Of a stretch of 20,000 bases of DNA, positions 1-20,000 are shown piece by piece. The notes under the pieces are model-generated. The model worked only from the letters and a program-made list of their open reading frames with translations, was not told the DNA's origin and did no database searches. The stretch spans positions 183,706-203,705 of the forward strand of contig JBEWZL010000036.1 of assembly GCA_045837725.1 (NCBI GenBank), given 5' to 3'. The stretch's first letter is position 1; every line of letters begins with the position of its first letter. The position numbers and the translations under genes were made by a program. This DNA comes from Vermamoeba vermiformis. Taxonomy: Eukaryota.

Positions 1-7
1 GCCTTTA

Positions 8-2847
8 ATGGCCCGTAAAAAACCACCAGAATCGCAGTGAAGTACGTAGACGCTTACTGAATCGTACCGAAGGCTCGAATTATTTATTTAAATATCCAGT
101 AATTATTTCATTTTGCGGTCGATCGAGGGAAGATTGACGAGCAAGTCTGGTCTTGGCTTACGAGCATAGTCTGACCTCTTATTACTAGCTCCTCCTGATG
201 AACATCAGAATTGACGAAGGTCACCACGATAAGCGTAGCTGGGAACCTTGGAGTCAAGAGGAAATTAAAGTTTTTTTCGATTCGATCGTAAAATACGGCA
301 GAAACTGGGCTCTCATCGCGAAAGAAATTGGAACAAAGCGCCAAGAACAAGTAATTATTATCCCGATAATTATCAAGCCTTAATCAATTAATCAATAATT
401 CTATTTTTATTTTGAAAATAATGGCCAATTTAATTTCCAAAACCTCGTTTGCTTTTGCTCAAATCACACTAATATGTGATAAATAATTGATTATGTAATA
501 TTGTTAAATTAATGGCATTATTTAAATTCGTGTGAACGGTCAGCGGCCTCATCTCTTTACTCTCACTTGTGCACGTACTAATAATACTTTCCACTTCAGG
601 TTAGAACATATTTTTATAGATTACTTAAGAAGGTCACTAAATTGCTCGAGCCACTTCACTTTACTTTCGATTCTCGCGATCGGATGGACACTTTGATCGC
701 ACTCGTTTGCTATTGGGAAGCTAAGCGCGATCTTAATATACCAGAGGCGCCAAACCCATCTGCAACAGCGAGCTTAGCTAGAGCAGTGCGCGACAGAATT
801 ATTAAGTAAGTTCTAACAATATGGTTGAATTTCGTTTGAAAGTTTAGAGTACTTTGAACTTCCGTAATTAGTAGAAAGTGAAGTTCAAAGTAAGGAAATA
901 TGACCGAAAGAGCAAACAGTATTAATATTTATTTTCTCCAAAGACAACGCAAAGAGCTAGAACTGATGCGGTCGCGACGACTTCCAGCACCCGAGAAAAT
1001 TACATTCCAGCTCGTTCCTATAAGCAATGACATGGCGTCTGACTTATCGCAAGCTGGGTGTAACCCGCGATTACAGTAAGCGTCATTTTGGTCTTCTAAG
1101 AAATTAATTCTTGAAATTTACTAGCCGTTACACGAGCTAATTAAATTCGTGCAGGCTCACTGTTAAGTCAAGCAAGCGACTGTCGTCCATCATTCAGCAC
1201 TTAATGAGCAAGTGGACACGTCCTGGCAACGAAGGCAAGCGTGTCTCAATTGCCACTGGCCCTATTCGGTTGTTTCCGCACCTAAAAATGGGACATCCGG
1301 GTTGGGGAGTTGAGGACGAGGAAGTTACAGCGCTGAAGTTGTTTCATGCACTAGGGTGTCCTGAGATATGCAAAGTAGATTATAGTTGGAAGGCTGTACC
1401 AACTCAACCGACGCAACAACAGCATCTGGGATCGGATCTTAGTGCAGCGGAGCTCGAGCAATATTATCAATTATTCAATAATGCAGAAGGAAATGTTGCA
1501 ATCAAGAATGAAGGAAGCAATCATAGTGGCGAGAATAGTTATTCACCAGAAGGCCACTATTTTACGCTGGATGATTTTCATCACTCGGATGAGGACCACT
1601 TTGACGATCTGAACATCAAGTTGTCGTCGAATGATGCCTTTGGATTCGAGTCAGGCGAGAGTCACAGCTACAGCGTCGAAGAAAGACAAGTTATACTGCC
1701 GGACATTTCCATGAACACGTTAAACAATTTGTTGAACTCCGGTGGAGCGAGCACGAATCAAAGAACAGCTTGAATACCAGTCAAAGCGGACTCAATCTAT
1801 CTCCTGTATCGATCAACAACGCCAGCATCAACAACGTCACTGTTCAACAACAAGAACGAGAGAATGCAAACCAGCGAAGCATGTTGAACGCAAGTTTTTC
1901 CATACTTCACGATGCTTCGTCAATGGGCTTTGATGCGTCTAACGACATGTTTGGCACTGGCTTCAAGCACGCTACGTCATCGTTCTCAACTGCAGTGAAT
2001 AACTTGAAGGTCGAGAAGATCCAATCCGATCAGTCGCCGCCACCGTTCCTCGGAACTAACAATGGCACCAATGGGCAAGGCTATCCATCAAGGCCATCTC
2101 CTGTTACTAACGCTAAGCGAAGGTACGTTGGAAACATAACCACAATTTTTTCGATCGCAAAAGCGGATCAAAAAACCGAATCTGGATGCGCGAGTTGTTT
2201 AACCTCGTTAGATCGGCGCAGGAAGTACTTGTGGGCGTTCTTTGTTAGTGTTCGCAAGTAGTGACCCGAACACGATGTTGCAAAACGTCTCGGGCACGAC
2301 CACACTAACAAGAATGCACCGCTTCCCGTCCGATCAGCGAAGTTAAGCTTGTTCAGGCCTTCTTAGTACTGGGGTAGGAGACTACCTGGGAATCGGAGGT
2401 GTTGTGCTCTTTACTTTTTGCTTTTTTGCTTCGCTGCTTGGCTACCCGTACCCTTATTTCGCGTTATCATTATATCACCGAACATCTTTCGGCCTCCACA
2501 TCCAGATTCGAATCCGATTTCACTTTTTTTTGCTTATTGTTTTCAGACGGCATTACTAACGCGCAGTATTTAGATTACAACCGGAGTCCTTATTCAAAGA
2601 GGATTCGCTGGATGTTAGCGAGGTTCCTTTACGCGCATCAGCTGGTTCACGTAACAACGGCCCAAGTACCAACAACAAGACGTCTCTCGGTGTTCGACTC
2701 AACGAAAATGGCAAGCGAGACTTGCAGTCGTTCATTGAGGAGACGTCTTTCGTGCCATTTCGCTCTCAGGTATTCGGATCTGGCAGCACGCAGGAAGACA
2801 ACGACGGTTCTGCTGCTAAAAGGCGAAAGCTGGATTCGGTGCCTTGA
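8..2847 (+). CDS. CRAMP1: Cramped-like / TSL-kinase interacting protein 1 (TKI1)-like SANT/Myb-domain chromatin protein; one or two apparent 1-nt frameshifts
   Basis: Exons ~8-36/41, 209-350, 600-805, 944-1075, 1155-2122 (frame change near 1765), 2574-2847. Spliced product contains the SANT segment KRSWEPWSQEEIKVFFDSIVKYGRNWALIAKEIGTKRQEQ|VRTYFYRLLKKVTKLL and the Cramped/TKI1 block KITFQLVP...GCNPRLQ|LTVKSSKRLSSIIQHLMSKW. C-terminal NLS-like AKRRKL. The first exon is uncertain. Confidence 0.8.
2197..2269 (-). repeat. Degenerate inverted (antisense) copy of the 5S 5' half forming a fold-back with 2290-2348
   Basis: GTTTAACCTCGTTAGATCGG pairs with CCGATCAGCGAAGTTAAGC; GGAAG with CTTCC; GCGTTCTTTGTTAGTGT with ACACTAACAAGAATGC; GTAGTGACCCGA with TCGGGCACGAC. 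The blocks are in nested order. Confidence 0.9.
2292..2410 (+). rRNA. 5S rRNA gene, intronic, same strand as host gene
   Basis: 119 nt. Helix I GGGCACGAC (2292-2300) pairs fully with GTTGTGCTC (2401-2409). Conserved eukaryotic 5S segments CCCGTCCGATC, GAAGTTAAGC (box A), TAGTACT, GGAGAC (box C region) and GGGAA are present, followed by oligo-T runs. Confidence 0.95.
2410..2427 (+). terminator. RNA polymerase III oligo-T terminator of the 5S gene
   Basis: TTTacTTTTTgcTTTTTT directly after the 5S 3' end (T5 at 2415-2419, T6 at 2422-2427). Confidence 0.8.
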
Positions 2848-3093
2848 GCGAAGCTAGCAATTTAATTTCAGTGTACAATTACTACCCTTTCAACCGTAGC
2901 TTTAGCGAGAAAGCCAACCGATCTTTTCTTGTTTGAAGTTACGGATGGAGCTGTCGTGAGCGAAGAAGTGCAGTCGTTTAATTACAACTGCCTTCTTTAG
3001 CTTAGTTTTAAATCAGAGATATCAAAACAAGCGATAGACTCCTCAATGTAAATAAACGGATCAAATTATTTATTGTAACCCGATCTTCGTTTG

Positions 3094-4483
3094 TTACTTT
3101 CTCCCGTGTTCCGCGCTAGCATTTTTAGTACCAGAGTTGTTACGTGCGATCCATTCTCTCAGGTCAGTACTGCTAATAATGCGACAGGAGTGCTTCCAGA
3201 CAATTGTCAACGATTTCAAATTGAACTTTGATACTCGAAGTCCGTTCACATGATTGATGCCGTTGATGCCTGTAAAAGTCAGTTGTGCATACGTTATAAT
3301 GGTACTAATTACCTTCTTCGTTATTCTCGACAACAGCAGCCTCAATCTCCGGATCATTCATCAGCCTACATCCGTCCGAGTTCGGACACCTCGTTACAAT
3401 TTGAATCTATGCAATAAGTGATTAATCAAATCATTCTCATATGAAAATAAGTCTCTTACATCTTTTTCAGCGATTGTAGTGTCAATAATATCAAGGAAGT
3501 GTTTGACGCCTTCATTACGTGTTTCAATGCTCTCAATCAGCTCTTGATGCTTCTTGCCACCAAGTACAGCTAAAGGAAAATAATTAAGCCGGCACTTAGA
3601 CATAAAGGATATCAAGGCATACTGAGCACAGCTACTACAAGCTTTTTCTTGGCAACCAAAGTACCGAGGGTGATGAGCATTTTATGATCGAAATGAAGTC
3701 TGTCAAACGTTCCTAAGTGTTGAAAATGAGTTTAATTCTTGTAAAATTTGAACATTTTGCTTATTACCTGCTAATGAGACGCAATTGAACGATTTGTAAT
3801 TGAATTCGTGAGGCGTGTGATCTGTGGGCAAATTAGCTTCACCCAACGACTTTGATAGTTTGTGAATATGTTCTTCTTCTATTTGTTCTAATAATAAACT
3901 CGGAAGATTATTTTTCTGCCGCTTTTCATTCCATTGATTAAAAACTTCAGTGCCTAAAGCGAACTAGTTAGATCAGTTATCGTTATATTTCTATCAATTA
4001 ACTTACTATATGCAAATACATGCGTAATATCGTAAATTAAATATAGACGCACGCTATTGGGGAGTAAAATCGTTAAGTTTCGCGAGTAATCTTGGGCTGT
4101 TCGCTGGATGGCTGCAAAATGACCGTATACTCGAATCAGCACTTGTTGTGCTTGTTTAATCTATTATATTAGCGCGGGTTAGATGCATGCTACGCATTGT
4201 ACTCTTTAAGTTTCAATACGGCGTGAAAAGGTTGAAATTCGGTTTAAATATTTTAAAAAATACTTAAAAATCATACGTTAATAGGCCACGCCTCTGCAAA
4301 TGTCAAATATACATATAAGTGGCTGGTTTGTCTCCAACAATGCCTGGTAAATAATGGTGTCAGCAACGATACGGATCTAACTAAGTTTAGAATGGCGTAC
4401 TCGAGAAGTTCAAACGGAAATAATTCTAGATTATTTATTAGCAGCTCAATGCCGCCAATTTTTTGTTGTGCGTTGTGCTCCAT
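3094..4483 (-). CDS. Phosphopantetheine adenylyltransferase-like (CAB4/COASY PPAT domain; HIGH-family nucleotidyltransferase), divergent
   Basis: Exons 4483-4401, 4343-4277, 4160-4007, 3953-3768, 3712-3623, 3569-3460, 3406-3313, 3269-3094, all phase-compatible GT-AG. Motifs VSLAGTFDRLHFDHKMLI, KKHQELIESIETR, DPEIEAAVV, VNGLR and ISSTDLR. Confidence 0.8.
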
Positions 4484-4574: not shown

Positions 4575-6433
4575 ATGAGTCACAACGATAAGGTTAAATT
4601 ATTGAAGGACTTTGAACAGATGGCTATGAGATGCCGAAACGGAAATTTGGAGGTAACAACGGATCTCGTCTTTCTCGTAATATTGCAATTATATTAATAT
4701 TTTATATAGGTACTTGACCAAAGATTATTGCCTACGCAAGAGGTTTGGTTGCCCGTTGAGCGTATTGAACAGATGCACGATTACATCTTGCAGTTGGCTG
4801 TTCGTGGTGCACCCTTAATTGGATGTGCCGCTGCTTTGGCCCTCGCTGTTCATGTCGTTAAGGCTTGGCCCAAGTATGCTTATTAATTATTCATTTAACA
4901 TGAAGCGAGATAATTATGTTTTCGGATCCGACTCGTGAAAATTATTTAATAATTACAATAGGTGTTAATTAATTATTATATTATTTGTGTAATATTTATA
5001 GACTGTAAAACAAATTCTAAAATTGTTAATAATTCCAGCGATCCAGACATGATTAAAACTGCTGCTTACATTCGTTCAGCCAGGTAAATATACGCGCATA
5101 GTATTTATAGCCATAGTATTAATTATATCGTATTATTTGTAGACCTACAGCAGTTAATTTGATGTACGCAGTGGACGAGATCTTGCAGTTGCAAAAACCC
5201 GAGAATGAACGATCGCACAGCCCTGAAACAGTTTGCGAAATTGCATATAAACTCATGGATGACGAGGTATGTTATTAGTGAAGCACTTCAGAGTCATACG
5301 TACCAGTAGAGGCTTGATCCGGATCCTACAAACTGATCCTCAAGTATTCTAGCTACAATGCCCTCATAATTAAACCAACCAAAATAACATATCAGCTTGA
5401 CATATATAGTCTTAATAATAAGAGTCCATTCTAAATTTCCGTTTGTTTCTAGATTGCCATGTACGAGCGAATGTCAAAGTTTGGCGCTGACTTGATCAAG
5501 GATGGTAAGCGAATTCAGTCCATAATAGCTTATATATAGAGTATCAGAAGGCTATGTATATCAATCGGAGCGGTTAATTCTACTTTTTGAAGTAATCAAA
5601 GATATTTTAAGGAACAACAATGTGACACGTGTCAATGAGAAGTCACTCATGTATTTTACTATAGGCGATAATATTCTTACTCACTGCAACACTGGCGCGT
5701 TGGCGACGCCGGGCATGGGTACCGCACTGGGTGTCATTCGCGAGGCTCATCGTCGTGGCTTGAAAATTCACGTCTATGTTGACGAGACGCGACCCTTGCT
5801 TCAAGGAGGTCGTTTGACTACTTATGAGCTTCAAAAGGAAAAGATTCCTTATACTCTTATATGCGACAATATGGCAGCTACTTTAATGCGTCAAGGCAAA
5901 ATTCAGCGAATTTTTGTTGGTGCTGATCGGATCGCGATCAACGGAGACTTTGCCAATAAGATCGGTAAGAGCTCGCAGATATATTATAAAATAGTACATT
6001 CATATTATATGCCATATTTAATATTAATACGCGGATAGTCAGCGATGGTGTATTTTAAATAATTTTTTATTAGTTTGAGCTATGCGCAAAGCAGTTTAAT
6101 TTGAAGCTGAATCTAGATTAACGATTCAATGTTCCAGGAACATATAGCGTAGCAGTTGCGGCAAAATACCACAATGTCCCTTTCCATCCCGTAGCACCTC
6201 AATCAACGGTCGATTTTGAATGTTTGAACGGAGATCAGATCCCGATCGAAGAGCGCAAGCACGAGGAGGTGCGCGGAGCTTTTGGAACACGTTGGGCACC
6301 CGAAGAATGCAATACTTGGAACCCTGCATTCGATGTAACGCCAGGTGAGCTCGTTACATCGCTGATCTTGGACTCAGGAGTCTATGATACTGCAGCATTG
6401 CGCGATCGTGTATTGCTGAAGCTCAAGAAATAA
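4575..6433 (+). CDS. MRI1: Methylthioribose-1-phosphate isomerase (methionine salvage)
   Basis: Exons 4575-4652, 4710-4873, 5039-5083, 5143-5266, 5453-5504, 5665-5964, 6138-6433. Motifs [65 protein letters not shown] and NPAFDVTP. Confidence 0.96.
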
Positions 6434-7484: not shown

Positions 7485-7825
7485 TTTTTTCCATCTCTTT
7501 CGGGCTACAGAGTCGTTCGCTCTTGCATCATCTCCTTCGAATCTCCTTTTTGGCATTATTACTAACGAGTGTTGCTCTTGGTCGTAAATAATAAATTGAA
7601 AAGGTCCAGAATATTCGCGATAAAATTTGCCGTCGTTTATTTATTTGCACATTAGACATTCTACCGATGAAGTGCTTTATGATTTCTTTACGCAGCTTAG
7701 ACCGTCACCTGGGGTGCACTTGTTAGTCTGGACCTACTTCAGTGGTTTCAAAAACCGAGCGTTTTCAAACTAATTTTATTTTAATATTTAAAAAGATATT
7801 CGCTACAAAATAACTAATAATTAAT

Positions 7826-9532
7826 TTAAAAGGCAAGAGCGAGTGCCATCAAAGCAATTGCAGGACCAACAGCTGAAGCGCTGCCAGTTTTTGCCTTTGG
7901 AGTGGCGGCAACAGGCGCGTTATTAGCCACAGGAGCACCGGCAGGACCATTGCACGTGAATCCATCGCCAGTGAAGCCTTCATTGCACACACACGAGTAT
8001 CCGAACATCTCTTCGATGCACTTCGCGTTCGCTGAACACTTGTTGGCACTGGCAGAAGCGCACTGGTCGTTGGGAATGAGCCAGATGCTGTTAAACGTTG
8101 GAATTGCTGAAAAGGGGGCTGAACCACCACCCACAATGAACATATCGCCGTTGAAGTTGATGCCGTTTGTACGAGCAGGATAAGCCGCGCCAGTATAATT
8201 CGAGCCAGTCTGACGATAGTTCACGAAGGAGGTAGTAACGTTGGCATCAACAGTGTGCGTGTCGCCGTGCACGAGCTTCCATTGCTTCAAACTCTTGTTG
8301 TACAGCCACACTTGGTTCAACGGTCCCCAAGTTCCGGCGTCATTGTATCCAGCAGTAGGAACCATCATTGCAGTGCCGTCCATGCGATCAACAAACAACA
8401 TGCCTTCACCACTGCCAGGATGATTGTCGGGATGATAGTCAGATGACACAGACACAGGATATGCACCAACAGTGTCAGGACCGAACTCGAGCTCCCACTT
8501 TCTCTTGACACGTGTGTCAAAGGTCCAAATGCTGCCATAGTCTTCGTAGCCACCAGCAGTGGTTCCCCAGCCGCCGTAAAGCCAGGCACGATCGTTCTCG
8601 TCGATGAAACAACCAGGAGTCCATACACCGCCAAACAACGTAGCGGTATAATTGAATGGCTGTTCGGTTATACTGCCAGTGATGAACTTCCATAGCAACG
8701 ATGTCGTGTTGAAGTGCCAAACACTGCTCGTCATGCCGTTCTTGTTGTAACCAGACAACAGCCAGAGGTCGTTGTTGGAGTCAGTGACCAGGCAACCTCC
8801 TCCCGTGTATCCAGGCCCCACGTCCTCTCCAGGTTGACCAGGATTAGCGCCGATGCTTGGATTGATGGTGTCCGGAAAGAGTCCATGCATTCTGACGAAC
8901 ATCATGGATGTGGTGTTGAACATCCAAAACTCGCCTCCATACTCGTAAGTAGTGAACCAAATATTATCATTCTTATCAACAGTGATGCTACTGTAGCGGA
9001 TTCCACCAGGGTGGTTCGTTTCAGCAGGTACTCGAAGGTCGCCAGGGTTGCGTGGATTCGTTCTGGCAGTTTCGTTGCTTCCCCAAACATATCGATACTG
9101 ATCTGTTTTAGGATTGTAGTTCCATGCGTTGTATAAATAATTTATTCCATTGCGAAACGAAGACCCAAACATGATCCAAAGAACGCCTTTCGAATCCATC
9201 GCTGCTAAAGGGCATGCTCCACGAGAACCAGCGCCAATGTCGATAGTAGTCCAAACACCTTTCTCGACAGTGTAGCTCTCAAAAATATCGGCTAAATTAT
9301 CGGACGTTAGTTTCGGCAGTACAGATTAAAAAAAACGTAATCTAATTAAAACAAGCGCGGCTATAAAACTGTATTGGCGCGCATTATATCATTGTTTGTA
9401 AATTTACTCACCAATACCGGTTTCATTAACGGTGGTTGGAGAAATCCAGATGGGTTCAAACGAGGCAGCCGTAGCGGTTCTGTAAAGTCCGCTCACAAAC
9501 AAGCAAAGAGCGACTGTAAGGTAGAGTCGCAT
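7826..9532 (-). CDS. Secreted kelch-like beta-propeller + EGF-domain surface protein, probable GPI anchor (copy A)
   Basis: Exons 9532-9412 and 9291-7826. Signal peptide MRLYLTVALCLFVSGLYRTATA; repeated D.nd.W.fGG...W.yn....W blades; EGF C-SANAKC-IEEMFGYSCVCNEGFTGDGFTC; Ala/Pro stalk; C-terminal SAS + hydrophobic tail. Confidence 0.85.
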
Positions 9533-9894: not shown

Positions 9895-11290
9895 CTAAAC
9901 GTTCTCGTAGTCCGCTGGTTTGAAGCCGCGAGGGTACGACCTTCCCAAATAAGGATCAATCGAAGTCAACGGAGGGTCAATTCGATTATACATAACACTA
10001 AAGTTGACATTCGTGAGTGCTGCTTGCTGGTCCAAGTAATCTTTGCACAAATTTGTTTGCTCCGCTTCCGATGGTACCACGTGACTGTCCGAGCCATATA
10101 TGCAGTTCTGATGTGCCAGTAAGTACTTGATACATTTCATAAGGCCAGGCTCATCGTACACAGGCAAGACAACGCCCAATGAAAATCCCCAATCAGGCTC
10201 CTCTTGTGCCTCGACAGCTCTGCGGAGATATTCCGTCGCACGCTCCAAACAAGCCTGATTATTCCACTCGGCACCGTGCTCGTGTGCATATGATAAACAA
10301 TTATACGCGCCATTTTCACTCGCGACGAGACACGTGTCAAGGTGCCACGGGGCGCCATGTTCGTGCGCATACTGAAGTGCTGCCAATTGATTTTTCCGCA
10401 CGGCGATAGCGGTGATGTCATCGGGCCAAGAGTAACCATTGTTGTATGTATATTCGTACATTGATATATCTCCCTTTTCGTAGAAAAATTCGAATGATTT
10501 GATGTCCGCGCGATAATTTTTCTGGAGCAAGTTGTCCACCATACTTGCAAGCATTGGGTTGGAGATGATATAACTAGGAATTGATGTCCATTTGGGTCTA
10601 ATACCTTGAGCCCACAGGTACTCGCACTTCTCTAAGTACCCATATTGTATAGTCTTCTCTATGTCGTGTGGCACAAACGGGATCCGGACCATTTTGTGAA
10701 TATATTCCAAACAACGAAGATCCTTGCTTTCACTACCAATAATAATTGACTTGAGATTTTCCTGCGAATAAGGATGTCCGTGTGATATAAGATATTCTAA
10801 TATGTCGTAATTATCTTTTGTTGCTGCTGCGTCGATGATCCGAAAGTGGGTCAAGTTATCGAAGCCAAATCCGTTTTCGTGCGCGAATTTAATGCACGAT
10901 AAATTTCCATTACGCGCAAACTGCTCTAATATGAGTGTATAATCGAGGTGTTCTTCGTAATGAGCTAGAACGCTTGGATGTGTCTTGCAAAGTTGATGAA
11001 GTTGTTTGTTGACCAGTGGTAAGAATAAAAAACTCGCTCGTGCATATAAATCACGACCTAATGATGCATATCCAATACGATCAATAATAAGGTTCCAAAT
11101 ATCATTCGGAAGCTCCTGAAAAATAATAATAACGTTAGAAAAATATTATTAAATTTCACATCGAGGGCTAAGGACCAAAATAGTTAAAAAATAATTTCAT
11201 AAATAATTATACAAATAGAATGGATATGCTGATGTGCGCCGAATGCCAATTTAACGAAAATTAAAAAAAATATTAACTTTGTCTTACCAT
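9895..11290 (-). CDS. F-box-like N-terminus + ankyrin-like repeat protein (xLxYAHExGxPW type)
   Basis: ATG (11290-11288), intron 11287-11116, then one in-frame exon 11115-9895 starting ELPNDIWNLIIDRI. Repeats ARNGNLSCIKFAHENG, LAALQYAHEHGAPW and ASENGAYNCLSYAHEHGAEW. Confidence 0.85.
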
Positions 11291-12446: not shown

Positions 12447-14194
12447 ATGCTAACACTATGGAGAGGTAGATCCCTCTTATTTAAGAATGATGCAATGCGC
12501 GGCTTCACTATTAGCACTCAACAGTGTGTAAGATCGTTTGCAACCGAAGCACATCCCGCTAAAGAAGAGTAAGAATTTTTTAAAATTATATGGGCACGAT
12601 ATCTTTTATCTAATATATGGTTGCGTATGAAGAATATCGTATTAGATTATTTGTATAATTTACTAATTTTTTGATGCCCGTAAAACCAACCTGCAGTAAC
12701 TTACAACGTTTCTTAGTAAGGGAATATTCAACAAAAAAGAAGCACAATCAATCAAAGGCAAATCTTCATCGTGAGTTCATAATTGGATTGTAGATCAGAT
12801 CGAACTAAAATTTGGTGTCAGATCAACTCAATGGCTACAAAGAAAATTCAACGATAAATTTACAAGAAAAGCTCACGAAGAGAATTTAATTTCACGAGCG
12901 GCATTTAAACTTCAAGAAATCCAACGCAAGTTTAGAATTATAAAACGAGGCAACATCGTCTTGGATCTCGGGTATGTGGCCTGATTAACAAATGAAGATA
13001 TCTTAAAATAATACTATATAACCAATAGAGCAGCACCTGGTGGTTGGAGTCAGGTAAGTTCTTGTTTAATTCGTCGCGTACTGGATCTCATCGAGCTCGA
13101 TCCTTTTAGATTGCTTCTCGATTATGCGTCTACAGTTCTGAAAAGAAAGCGGAGCTTGAAAAAGACGAAGAAGATCGAATGTCGAGAGGGCAGGTCTTTA
13201 GTGTTGATATTAAGGGTATAGACTCATTCGTAAAACTCCGAGATTGTGGATCGGAACTAAATTTTTTAATTTTAGAAATGGAACCTATTAGAGGCTGTAT
13301 ATGCCTTAAGCTGGACTTTACGGAAGATTCCGCTGTAAATACAATCAATTTAATGCTCCGCGGACGGACAACAAACGTCGTATTAAGGTAAGGGGATCCG
13401 GCCTTATTTGTCAAGTACTAACGATTGGTTTAGTGATATGGCCCCGTCATATTCCGGTCAAAAAGATATCGATCACATGCGATTGATGGTATGCAATTCC
13501 ATTGTATCAAATTTAAGTTTTTAGATGCAGACCTGGAAATTTACCGTCGAGTCCCAAATTGGTGCCAATTTAGTCTTTCATATGTGAACCGTTTTATTAT
13601 TAGTTTGTGTCTATCGTGATTTCCGTAGTTCATTTGCTGACAAGAAAATATACCGATCAGGATCTGAGCACTCGCGCGTTTGAGTTTGCAAAGAAAGTAT
13701 TAAAGTCCGGAGGTCATATAGTGCTTAAAGTGAGCCGCGGAGGAACAGAAGGACAGCTTAAAAAGAAGTTAGAAGAATGTTTCAGAAAAGTCCAATATTT
13801 CAAACCGGATTCATCGTTCAAAGATTCAACGGAGATATATTTAGTTGGCATTGGTTTTAAGAGGCCAAAGAGCGCTCAAAATGAAGATAGTTATCAATTC
13901 AATTACACGAGAGTCCCAAACACAGACACAAACATAGACAAGTTTGACCAAACGTTGACCGAAAAATCAAAGTCCACGGATCTGCCTCCAAATACTCAAA
14001 AGCCAGGCGCAAACGATACTATGAATACTAGTAGCACTATAGTTAAGGAAAATAGGAAGGTGCAGTCAGAAGTAAAGACAAGCAGTGAAACTCCAGCCGC
14101 GCAAGTACATCCACCTAAGAAAAGTTCTGCAGCAAGTAAGAAACAAGACAAGTATCAGATCAATAAGGTGTTTGGATACAAAAAGCTAATATAG
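12447..14194 (+). CDS. MRM2: Mitochondrial rRNA 2'-O-methyltransferase (RlmE/FtsJ family)
   Basis: Exons 12447-12568, 12717-12770, 12822-12971, 13029-13053, 13110-13215, 13276-13387, 13434-13488, 13661-14194. Presequence-like MLTLWRGRSLL...VRSFAT; motifs SSTQWLQR, SRAAFKLQEI, VLDLGAAPGGWSQ, LSDMAP and FKPDSS...STEIYLV. Confidence 0.93.
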
Positions 14195-18908: not shown

Positions 18909-20000
18909 TTTTATTTTAATATTAGAATATTCGCTACAAAATAACTAATAATTAATTTAAAAGGCAAGAGCGAGTGCCATCAAAGCAACTGCAGGACCAA
19001 CAACTGAAGCGCTGCTAGTTTTTGCCTTTGGAGTGGCGGCAACAGGCGCGCTAGCCACAGGAGCAGCAACAGGGGCAACGGGAATGGCATTGCAAGTGAA
19101 TCCATCGCCAGTGAAGCCTTCATTGCACACACACGAGTATCCGAACATCTCTTCGATGCACTTCGCGTTCGCTGAACACTTGTTGGCACTGGCAGAAGCG
19201 CACTGGTCGTTGGGAATGAGCCAGATGCTGTTATAATTTGGAGTCCCTTTATTGGTGCCTGGACCACCACCCACAACGTACATATCGCCGTTGAAGTTGA
19301 TACCATTAGTACGAGCAGGAAAGGTCACGCCAGTATAATTCGAACCAGTCTGACGATAGTTCACAAAGGAAGTAGTAATATCGGCATCAACCGTGTGCGT
19401 GTCGCCGTGCACGAGCTTCCACTGCTTCAACGTCTTGTTGTACAGCCACACTTGGTTCAACGGTCCCCAGTTTCCATCGTCGGTGTATCCAGCAGTAGCA
19501 ACCATCATTGCAGTGCCGTCCATGCGATCAACAAACAGCATGCCTTCACCACTGCCAGGATGATTGTCGGGATGATAGTCAGCGGACACAGACACAGGAT
19601 ATGCACCAACAGTGTCAGGACCGAACTCGGGCTCCCACTCTCGCTTGACACGCGTGTCAAAGGTCCAAATGCTGCCATAGTCTTCGTAGCCATTAGCAGT
19701 GTTTCCCCAGCCACTGTAGAGCCAGACACGATCGTTCTCATCGATGAAACAACCAGGATTCCATACACCACCAAAATATGTAGCATTATAATTGACTTTC
19801 TGTTCGGTAATGCTGCCAGTGATGAAAGTCCATAGCAACGATGTTGTGTTGAAGTGCCAAACACTGCTATGGACGCCGTAGCTGTTGTAACCAGACAACA
19901 GCCAGATGTCGTTGTTGGAGTCAGTGACCAGGCATGCTGCTTCCGAATATCCAGGCCACACGTCCTCTCCAGGTTGGCCAGGATTAGCGCCGATGCTTGG
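18909..20000 (+). repeat. Direct duplication of ~7775-8860, including ~50 nt of 3' flank
   Basis: Shared 3' flank ATATTCGCTACAAAATAACTAATAATTAATTTAAAAGG; 7956-8093 is identical to 19096-19233. Confidence 0.92.
18957..20000 (-). CDS. Kelch-propeller + EGF + GPI surface protein, copy B (5' part beyond window)
   Basis: Colinear paralog of 7826-8860 at an offset of about 11.1 kb. The ORF stays open to the window end. Confidence 0.88.
   Translation of the reverse strand, partial: PSIGANPGQPGEDVWPGYSEAACLVTDSNNDIWLLSGYNSYGVHSSVWHFNTTSLLWTFITGSITEQKVNYNATYFGGVWNPGCFIDENDRVWLYSGWGNTANGYEDYGSIWTFDTRVKREWEPEFGPDTVGAYPVSVSADYHPDNHPGSGEGMLFVDRMDGTAMMVATAGYTDDGNWGPLNQVWLYNKTLKQWKLVHGDTHTVDADITTSFVNYRQTGSNYTGVTFPARTNGINFNGDMYVVGGGPGTNKGTPNYNSIWLIPNDQCASASANKCSANAKCIEEMFGYSCVCNEGFTGDGFTCNAIPVAPVAAPVASAPVAATPKAKTSSASVVGPAVALMALALAF

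Follow-up and report, generated by a model that had tools for sequence, protein, structure and literature searches.

An antisense half-copy of 5S rRNA next to an intronic 5S gene of Vermamoeba vermiformis, probably a decayed inverted duplication

Dispersed 5S rRNA gene families undergo birth-and-death turnover, and a partial, diverged fragment beside a gene fits such a family. Short inverted repeats can be extended by quasi-palindrome correction (intrastrand template switch), and the events described are usually tens of bases long and recent. In plants, a miRNA gene can be born when its target is duplicated in inverted orientation, and amoebozoans have RNAi machinery. In yeast, intron “zipper” stems shorten the effective intron, and in plants P5SM couples L5 levels to the alternative splicing of TFIIIA pre-mRNA. 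P5SM is described as a 5S mimic within a cassette exon of TFIIIA (PMC3378873), one review lists Neurospora, S. pombe and Acanthamoeba among the organisms with “linearly scattered” 5S genes (PMC1635290), and Pol III-type genes within Pol II introns are on record (PMC7722341; e.g. intronic tRNA-like elements affecting splicing). A literature search by titles and the beginnings of abstracts found no described equivalent of an inverted 5S half-copy abutting an intronic 5S gene.

The window (the whole stretch of 20,000 nt of V. vermiformis DNA that was analysed) had a GC content of about 0.33-0.51 per kb; the genome of the species is reported at 41.7% (PMC7125106), a compatible but uninformative value. 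A search with the methylthioribose-1-phosphate isomerase exon led, through a cluster at 85% identity, to an Echinamoeba exundans entry; this is a weak taxonomic pointer, as sequences labelled bacterial come to 78-79%, and the protein atlas yielded no usable taxon. It contains a complete 5S gene inside an intron of a protein-coding gene:

2123 to 2573, + strand: last coding intron of the host gene (451 nt, GT..AG), enclosing the arm, the 5S gene and the outer repeats
2292 to 2410, + strand: canonical 5S rRNA gene (RF00001, full model 1-120; 104.7 bits, gathering score 38; E 2.1e-22)

The intron was spliced out in one contig each of runs X4 and X8, from two studies (joint 2120>2572, 451 nt skipped, GT..AG, cut +2), and the reading frame continued across the joint (AG/A, with a stop at 2845-2847 after 90 codons), which bears out the proposal of an earlier, sequence-only reading that the 5S gene and its arm are embedded in a host intron. 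These contigs prove that splicing happens, not that it depends on structure. Runs X4, X6, X8 and X13 show related strains, with exons that deviate by about 2%. A single joint was seen in the RNA contigs, with no alternative splice form of the host, and the 5S-bearing intron was longer than the other introns of the gene (451 nt vs. about 80-250 nt, by eye). Host exon 198-350 encoded a Myb_DNA-binding domain (Pfam, E 4.7e-08), making this a Myb/SANT-domain host, and no Pfam family, hence no TFIIIA-type zinc finger, was found in four other host stretches (600-803; P0001 and P0003 among them). A switch of the P5SM type, with 5S-binding protein altering host splicing, had also been suggested; it found no footing in a Myb-domain gene with no 5S or TFIIIA link in the exons searched.

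Other copies of the 5S gene were available from DNA run X1 and from one further locus (L001), the only one returned by a 36-nt 5S pattern scan of metagenome_contigs (0 in genome_contigs and 0 in viral_contigs) and the sole other copy read with its flanks. Two features of the repeated unit emerged:

2253 to 2291, + strand: upstream block common to other 5S copies (17 nt, 2253-2269, identical in L001; jump in X1 depth)
2411 to 2427, + strand: T-runs after the 5S gene, likely Pol III terminator and also end of the repeated unit (from the sequence; loose contig ends at 2412 and 2426 in X1)

The window gene, a full-length Rfam 5S member by its covariance-model score above the gathering score, was highly repeated in X1 with many differing flanks (272 contigs, 42 of them matching the stretch only partly), and the stretch common to the other copies ran only from 2254 to about 2426. 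None of the variants among the rows listed for X1 fell within the 5S gene. The T-runs are what we take to be the terminator, going by the usual pattern of Pol III termination. The 5S of L001 read identically to that of the window, with the same Rfam score; ahead of it, a Peptidase_M24 domain is interrupted by a GT donor (profile position 96 of 208), and the gene is therefore probably a sense copy within an intron. L001 also carried a tRNA gene, reported inside an intron of a protein-coding gene. X1 was not letter-identical to the window (indels at 1745, 2146 and 2465) and, despite these indels, may be its source sample.

Upstream of the 5S gene, the intron contains a stretch that is predicted to fold back onto it:

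2197 to 2269, + strand: antisense arm, 5S nt -1..57 in diverged reverse-complement form (54 pairs with 2290-2348; alignment to the reverse-complemented 5S)
2274 to 2289, + strand: apical hairpin of 6 bp (pairs 2274:2289 to 2279:2284) closing the fold-back

The pair table recovered exactly the coordinates at which the 5S 5' half had been proposed to recur in antisense (2197-2269 vs. 2290-2348), and the RNAfold check on the fold-back was favourable: 2191-2351 folded into a single extended, imperfect hairpin (-69.4 kcal/mol), and none of 200 dinucleotide shuffles folded as well (mean -42.4, sd 3.6; z -7.43). The arm:5S helix (2197:2348 to 2269:2290, 5S nt -1..57) comprised 54 pairs, 49 Watson-Crick and 5 G-U. 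All four G-U pairs counted in the sequence-only reading (U2198, U2208, U2226 and G2237) were found and G2218:U2329 was added as a fifth, while its count of only one C-A mismatch had to be raised to two (C2204/A2341 and A2220/C2327). Pairing had also been described as running through box A; it does reach into this box, which we take to lie at about +50 to +64, but ends inside it at nt 57. About 8 substitutions and several indels separate the arm from the 5S, and the one 6-nt bulge and one 6-nt internal loop of the arm are read as decay, not maintenance.

At the DNA level, the arm aligned to the reverse-complemented 5S with a score of 27 (maximum of 300 shuffles, 22); under looser scoring the value was 48, and 1 of 500 dinucleotide shuffles did as well. 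The part of the intron upstream of the gene, duplexed with 5S nt 1-60, gave -62.1 kcal/mol (z -8.85). The arm thus shows the significant collinear similarity to the reverse complement of an adjacent gene that characterizes an inverted partial duplication. Its homology to 5S rests on this plain alignment and not on Rfam: with both strands of 2124-2289 scanned up to E<=10, the 5S covariance model found no match, and the arm is thus not recognisable by that model as a minus-strand 5S pseudogene. One Rfam match in the same interval, to an unrelated viral element (E 2.4), was discarded as chance. Comparison of minus-strand translations across the 5S gene and arm with the protein collection gave 1 candidate, and none scored. 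A fold-back assembly artefact was ruled out by a DNA-run contig covering 2179-2270 with 0 differences, together with the divergence of the arm from the 5S.

The arm and the gene differed sharply in copy number. Only two X1 contigs lay on 2179-2270 (depths 232.6 and 111.7), and their sum corresponds to the single-copy level of about 350; summed depth rose from this value to more than 100,000 from 2254-2256 onward and was 115,000-297,000 in the 5S core. The arm part 2197-2253 was therefore at single-copy depth and the 5S core hundreds of times deeper. The second of these two contigs showed 3 differences in 71 nt, including a T2209C/A2210G allele in which T2209C loses one pair. At least 17 X1 contigs from other copies lost similarity at 2254-2256, and one more broke at 2291; matching was at >=90% similarity, a threshold that more diverged arms at other copies would escape. 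The 9 loose ends at 2254 gave a 30-letter consensus with, by eye, some likeness to 2232-2253.

L001 had no arm: the fold z was -0.62 and the duplex z was -0.22 (170 nt upstream) or 0.1 (430 nt), vs. -8.85 in the window. Its likeness to the window upstream of the gene was confined to the proximal block with the 17 identical nt; the distal upstream part scored 31 against that of the window (shuffle mean 30.6, reached by 238 of 500) and, against the reverse-complemented 5S, a value reached by 33 of 500 shuffles, which is not significant. A check for arms of their own at other genomic 5S copies had been proposed, and the outcome was negative in L001 and in the X1 contigs that stop at 2254-2256.

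The arm is probably a locus-specific, largely neutral inverted partial duplication of the first ~57 nt of the 5S, since decayed. The first ~57 nt would have been copied in inverted orientation just upstream of a 5S gene of a dispersed family, and would then have decayed. In the conserved upstream block, 12 nt (2258-2269) that also form the proximal part of the arm are already complementary to the 5' end of the 5S (nt -1..9); this short quasi-palindrome may have primed an intrastrand template switch during replication or repair, the inverted repeat growing into the gene. In the Pol II pre-mRNA the arm would be made first and would pair with the 5S 5' half, keeping the embedded 5S from its native fold; transcription by Pol III presumably begins at +1, and its product would not include the arm. 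We judge that such masking of the 5S in the pre-mRNA would be a by-product and not a selected function, tolerated because the intron gets removed. Several points count against a neutral duplication. The template-switch origin is one that we purely infer, the armless comparison is one flanked copy plus X1 matches at the above similarity threshold, and the fold is more stable on the sense than on the antisense strand (-69.4 vs. -60.9 kcal/mol), the direction expected under selection on the sense RNA. In addition, the intron contains a second pair of complementary sequences:

2177 to 2188, + strand: outer inverted repeat, left arm, 12 nt (100% complementary to 2499-2510; single-copy X1 depth)
2499 to 2510, + strand: outer inverted repeat, right arm, 12 nt (outer stem in the whole-intron MFE structure)

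This perfect repeat brackets the arm, the 5S gene and 88 nt downstream (a segment of 334 nt); when the intron less 2197-2348 was shuffled 1000 times, a repeat this long arose 4 times (p about 0.004). In the MFE structure of the whole intron, the two repeats pair (2177-2188/2499-2510) around the arm:5S helix, and the splice sites lie 54 and 63 nt from this outer stem. Neutral decay predicts neither the repeat nor a rod joining the splice sites, and both are what would be expected if the arm and the 12-bp stem had been selected to fold the ~330-nt 5S insert into a rod that masks the 5S and brings the splice sites nearer. The arm-bound state was also about 20 kcal/mol better than the arm self-fold plus native-like 5S (-90.6 vs. 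-70.5 kcal/mol), the greater stability of the sense strand points the same way, splicing is seen in two data sets, and the intron exceeds the others of its host in length. This selected architecture is nevertheless unlikely: it rests on a single locus, the spliced contigs say nothing of structure dependence, and L001, probably an intronic sense copy, lacks the arm. The G-U pairs, seen earlier as a hint of selection on the sense RNA, do not bear this out, their excess over A/C mismatches (5 vs. 2) being not significant (one-sided binomial, 0.23) and 3 of the 5 deriving from C-to-T changes in the arm, i.e. from the commonest mutation class. A structure under selection would have its pairing kept elsewhere; it was not kept in L001, the arm is single-copy in X1, and the X1 allele loses a pair. 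The proposal that the arm blocks folding of the embedded 5S thus agreed with the energetics, whereas selection for that effect was not supported, the allele and the armless L001 speaking against it. It is decidedly unlikely that the locus is a functional intronic 5S gene with a selected mask present only in the pre-mRNA, formed by the 54-bp arm helix and the 12-bp zipper stem, which would lessen the decoying of 5S-binding proteins and keep the intron spliceable. The reading of the arm as a selected, built-in device is not supported; the outer 12-nt repeat keeps a splicing-related role open.

The arm might instead be ancestral, the founder 5S unit having had an upstream inverted fragment that decayed in most copies and was best kept here by youth or conversion. 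The proximal 12 nt of the arm do lie inside the upstream block common to many copies, L001 and one X1 contig can be aligned with the window back to about 2232, and, by eye, about 10 of the 19 nt of L001 equivalent to 2233-2251 agree with the reverse-complemented 5S. The distal upstream part of L001, as given above, significantly resembles neither the reverse-complemented 5S nor the distal arm of the window, and 17 X1 contigs break within 3 nt (2254-2256), which has the look of a unit boundary and not of gradual decay; we consider an ancestral arm unlikely. As a long imperfect hairpin of 54 bp within a Pol II transcript, the intronic structure could also be diced or edited, serving as a small-RNA source or dsRNA-processing substrate, but silencing of its own 5S would be harmful to the cell and the locus is unique, making this very unlikely; of 9.6 million reads in raw RNA run X21, 0 fell on the stretch, a result that carries no weight either way. 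The perfect 12-nt repeats around 334 nt resemble the termini of a foldback or MITE-like transposon carrying a dispersed 5S into the intron, which is extremely improbable given that the X1 bins with the repeats and arm are single-copy and not multicopy as such termini should be (497 and 318 vs. about 324-420), that no target-site duplication or flanking direct repeat was seen by eye, and that the other copies share only the 2254 to ~2426 stretch. We also considered one large palindrome, in which 2290-2510 was duplicated in inverted orientation and the left arm then lost sequence; by eye, the 8 nt separating the outer repeat from the arm had no convincing match to their expected partner.

If the inverted duplication was neutral, the locus would be a clean case of a short quasi-palindrome beside a repeated gene growing into a long hairpin. 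The presence of intact 5S genes (and of a tRNA gene in L001) in introns of protein-coding genes is useful for annotation and for understanding the spread of dispersed 5S genes. Should the arm and outer stem prove selected, they would represent a new insulation of the RNA of a Pol III gene from the enclosing Pol II transcript, and a selected mask would offer a route for Pol III genes to reside inside Pol II genes without cross-talk.

Compared with known systems, the locus resembles the dispersed 5S families of Acanthamoeba castellanii, Neurospora crassa and Schizosaccharomyces pombe in its many copies with differing flanks. Unlike the pseudogene fragments of such families, the arm lies head-to-head with an intact 5S gene, abutting it, in a spliced intron, and runs on collinearly from a short stretch in the conserved upstream block that is itself complementary to the gene. 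As in P5SM, a 5S-related structure is present in a pre-mRNA and could in principle meet 5S-binding proteins; P5SM, however, is a mimic in an alternatively spliced exon of TFIIIA, whereas here a genuine 5S gene is present together with an antisense arm that would block its folding, in an intron of a Myb-domain host with a single joint. Inverted-duplication small-RNA loci share the inverted duplication of part of a gene and the imperfect hairpin in a Pol II transcript, but here an essential rRNA takes the place of the “target” and the functional gene itself supplies the second arm. As intron zippers do, the outer 12-bp stem and the arm:5S helix would, in the modelled fold, loop out the insert. 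With quasi-palindrome correction, finally, the locus shares a short repeat (2258-2269/5S nt -1..9) continued collinearly by a longer one, and it differs from the described events in that about 50 nt were added here and then diverged.

Among Rfam families, only 5S rRNA was matched in the 20-kb window (104.7 bits, where the gathering score is 38), and the stretch from 2191 to 2351 was predicted to fold into one long imperfect hairpin, in which an upstream arm (2197-2269, a diverged antisense copy of the 5S 5' half) was paired with 2290-2348, or 5S nt -1 to 57. The minimum free energy (MFE) was -69.4 kcal/mol, compared with a mean of -42.4 (sd 3.6; z -7.43) for 200 dinucleotide shuffles, none of which folded as well. 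The helix comprised 54 pairs (49 Watson-Crick and 5 G-U); besides a handful of single bulges, it had mismatches at three positions (C2204/A2341, A2220/C2327 and A2260/G2298). At the DNA level, the arm aligned with the reverse-complemented 5S at a score far over those of shuffles, and a search of the arm against Rfam on both strands (E<=10) gave no 5S match. The pair table reproduced exactly the arm coordinates proposed in the sequence-only reading and contained all four of its G-U pairs, adding one further G-U pair and one A/C mismatch. The gene and the elements taken from the pair table were:

2292-2410, plus strand: 5S rRNA gene, full-length Rfam match, with T-runs directly 3'
2274-2279/2284-2289, plus strand: apical hairpin of 6 bp closing the fold-back
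2227-2232, plus strand: 6-nt bulge in the arm helix
2252-2257, plus strand: 6-nt internal loop in the arm helix

In one contig each of X4 and X8 (public runs from two studies, which the tool labels “RNA” by guesswork), 451 nt with GT..AG ends (2123-2573) were skipped. Across this splice joint the reading frame stayed open over 90 codons, up to a stop at 2845-2847, and the first exon encoded a Myb-like DNA-binding domain (198-350, E 4.7e-08). The 5S and its arm therefore occupy, in the sense direction, the last coding intron of a Myb-domain gene that is expressed and spliced. The host reading frame was shifted at 1745, where two ORFs (1141-1773 and 1635-2261) overlapped; every contig bridging this position had either one additional nucleotide (X1, the best public DNA run, X4 and X8) or two fewer (X1). 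Since each variant restored one continuous frame, a heterozygous indel has probably been rendered wrongly in the window by assembly or consensus calling. Within the intron, X1 showed a 1-nt deletion at 2146 and an 8-nt deletion at 2465, which are strain differences or assembly indels.

The following neighbours look like an ordinary eukaryotic housekeeping context:

5529-6038: methylthioribose-1-phosphate isomerase exon (IF-2B family)
9895-11145: ankyrin-repeat ORF
13604-14194: FtsJ-like methyltransferase exon

Taxonomically, a weak lead, on which no conclusion here depends, pointed to an amoebozoan close to Echinamoeba or Vermamoeba. Two paralogous genes with Kelch and EGF domains, about 11.1 kb apart (minus-strand ORFs 7826-9325 and 18957-20000), were 89-97% identical over segments of 7796-8224 and 18927-19364, and are a recent segmental duplication.

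In X1, 272 contigs were matched to 1500-3100, almost all on the 5S. The summed depth, which is not a copy number according to the tool's warning, was approximately 324-420 for the exons and the outer part of the intron and rose to 115,000-297,000 over 2256-2417, showing that the 5S unit is highly repeated. Only two contigs covered the arm region (2179-2270), with depths of 232.6 and 111.7, which together make up the single-copy level. Loose ends, the points where contigs of other 5S copies cease matching at >=90%, were clustered among those listed at 2254 (at least nine contigs), 2255 (at least two) and 2256 (at least six), with others at 2291 (one) and, downstream, at 2412 and 2426; one contig was alignable as far upstream as 2232. 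Depth, single-copy arm and clustered ends together place the repeated unit at roughly 2254-2426, which takes in no more of the arm than its proximal 12 nt (2258-2269, the complement of 5S nt -1 to 9). One X1 contig (depth 187.6) skipped 48 nt within the 5S (window 2337-2386); a deleted 5S pseudogene variant is present elsewhere in that genome.

A 36-nt 5S pattern had a single match in metagenome contigs (locus L001) and none in prokaryote genome contigs or viral contigs. The 5S of L001 was identical in sequence to that of the window, with an equal Rfam score:

L001 13-560, minus strand: second 5S copy and tRNA gene, downstream of a GTAAGT donor
L001 388-461, same strand as the 5S: tRNA gene, 257 nt upstream of the 5S

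This 5S is probably also intronic and sense, because a Peptidase_M24 domain is cut at the donor (position 96 of 208 in the profile), though the contig stops before the next exon. Sense Pol III genes within introns may be common in Vermamoeba vermiformis (both of the two 5S loci seen). No arm was detected at L001 by folding (z -0.62), and its upstream duplex with 5S nt 1-60 gave z values of -0.22 (170 nt) and 0.1 (430 nt), against -8.85 in the window. Its distal upstream region was not significantly similar to the window arm (score reached by 238 of 500 shuffles) or to antisense 5S (33 of 500). The proposed check on whether other 5S copies carry arms came out negative: at single-copy depth in X1 and missing from L001, the arm is, on the evidence obtained, not a general feature of 5S copies. 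An arm ancestral to the whole 5S unit is a decidedly improbable explanation.

Upstream of the 5S, the two loci had just one block in common, GG.CGTT.TTT..CGCAAGTAGTGACCCGA, its distance from the gene being 22 nt in the window but 64 nt in L001. Seventeen identical nucleotides (window 2253-2269, L001 approximately 197-213) were common to many X1 copies and included the 12 nt that complement the 5S 5' end. The block may be a promoter element, a unit boundary or a relic.

On the sense strand, transitions between arm and 5S account for 5 G-U pairs and 2 A/C mismatches (one-sided binomial 0.23), so the G-U excess read earlier as a hint of selection is not significant; three of the five G-U pairs go back to arm substitutions of C by T, the commonest type of mutation. 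Folding was more stable for the sense strand than for the antisense (-69.4 vs. -60.9), as selection on the sense RNA would predict, but the same seven sites underlie this difference. The second X1 contig over the arm differed at 3 of 71 positions, and its T2209C converted a U-A pair to C/A (allele MFE -68.6, one pair fewer). Within 2191-2425, the arm-bound fold had -90.6 kcal/mol, vs. -70.5 for the self-folded arm with a native-like 5S. Because of this lower energy, and because the arm is transcribed before the 5S, the 5S 5' half would be sequestered in Pol II read-through RNA, in agreement with the masking proposed earlier for the pre-mRNA; this is a consequence of the energies and in itself no evidence of selection. 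A selected masking or zipper function seems unlikely; the strongest point left in favour of a splicing-related architecture is a predicted outer stem:

2177-2188/2499-2510: 12-nt perfect inverted repeat, enclosing arm, 5S and the 88 nt that follow

When the intron without the arm and 5S half was shuffled 1000 times, only 4 shuffles reached a repeat of this length. In the whole-intron MFE structure the repeat formed a stem enclosing the arm:5S helix, with the splice sites 54 and 63 nt away. It was at single-copy level in X1 and was therefore ruled out as the terminus of a repeated transposon. The hairpin as a small-RNA source is very unlikely.

The most economical reading, and a reasonably probable one, is that a single, isolated partial duplication produced an inverted copy of the 5S 5' half. 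The short 5S-complementary segment of the conserved block possibly nucleated it, and template switching at a quasi-palindrome, a known mutation mechanism, may have extended the inverted copy, which would then have decayed; 5S masking would be a by-product of this duplication. A literature search at the level of titles and abstracts, weak evidence of absence, found no description of an antisense arm adjoining an intronic 5S. P5SM, located in TFIIIA pre-mRNA, mimics 5S (PMC3378873), and its defining context is not that of the window locus. Dispersed 5S families are described in Acanthamoeba, Neurospora and S. pombe (PMC1635290). The window arm is classed as a 5S-derived duplication fragment of a dispersed family.
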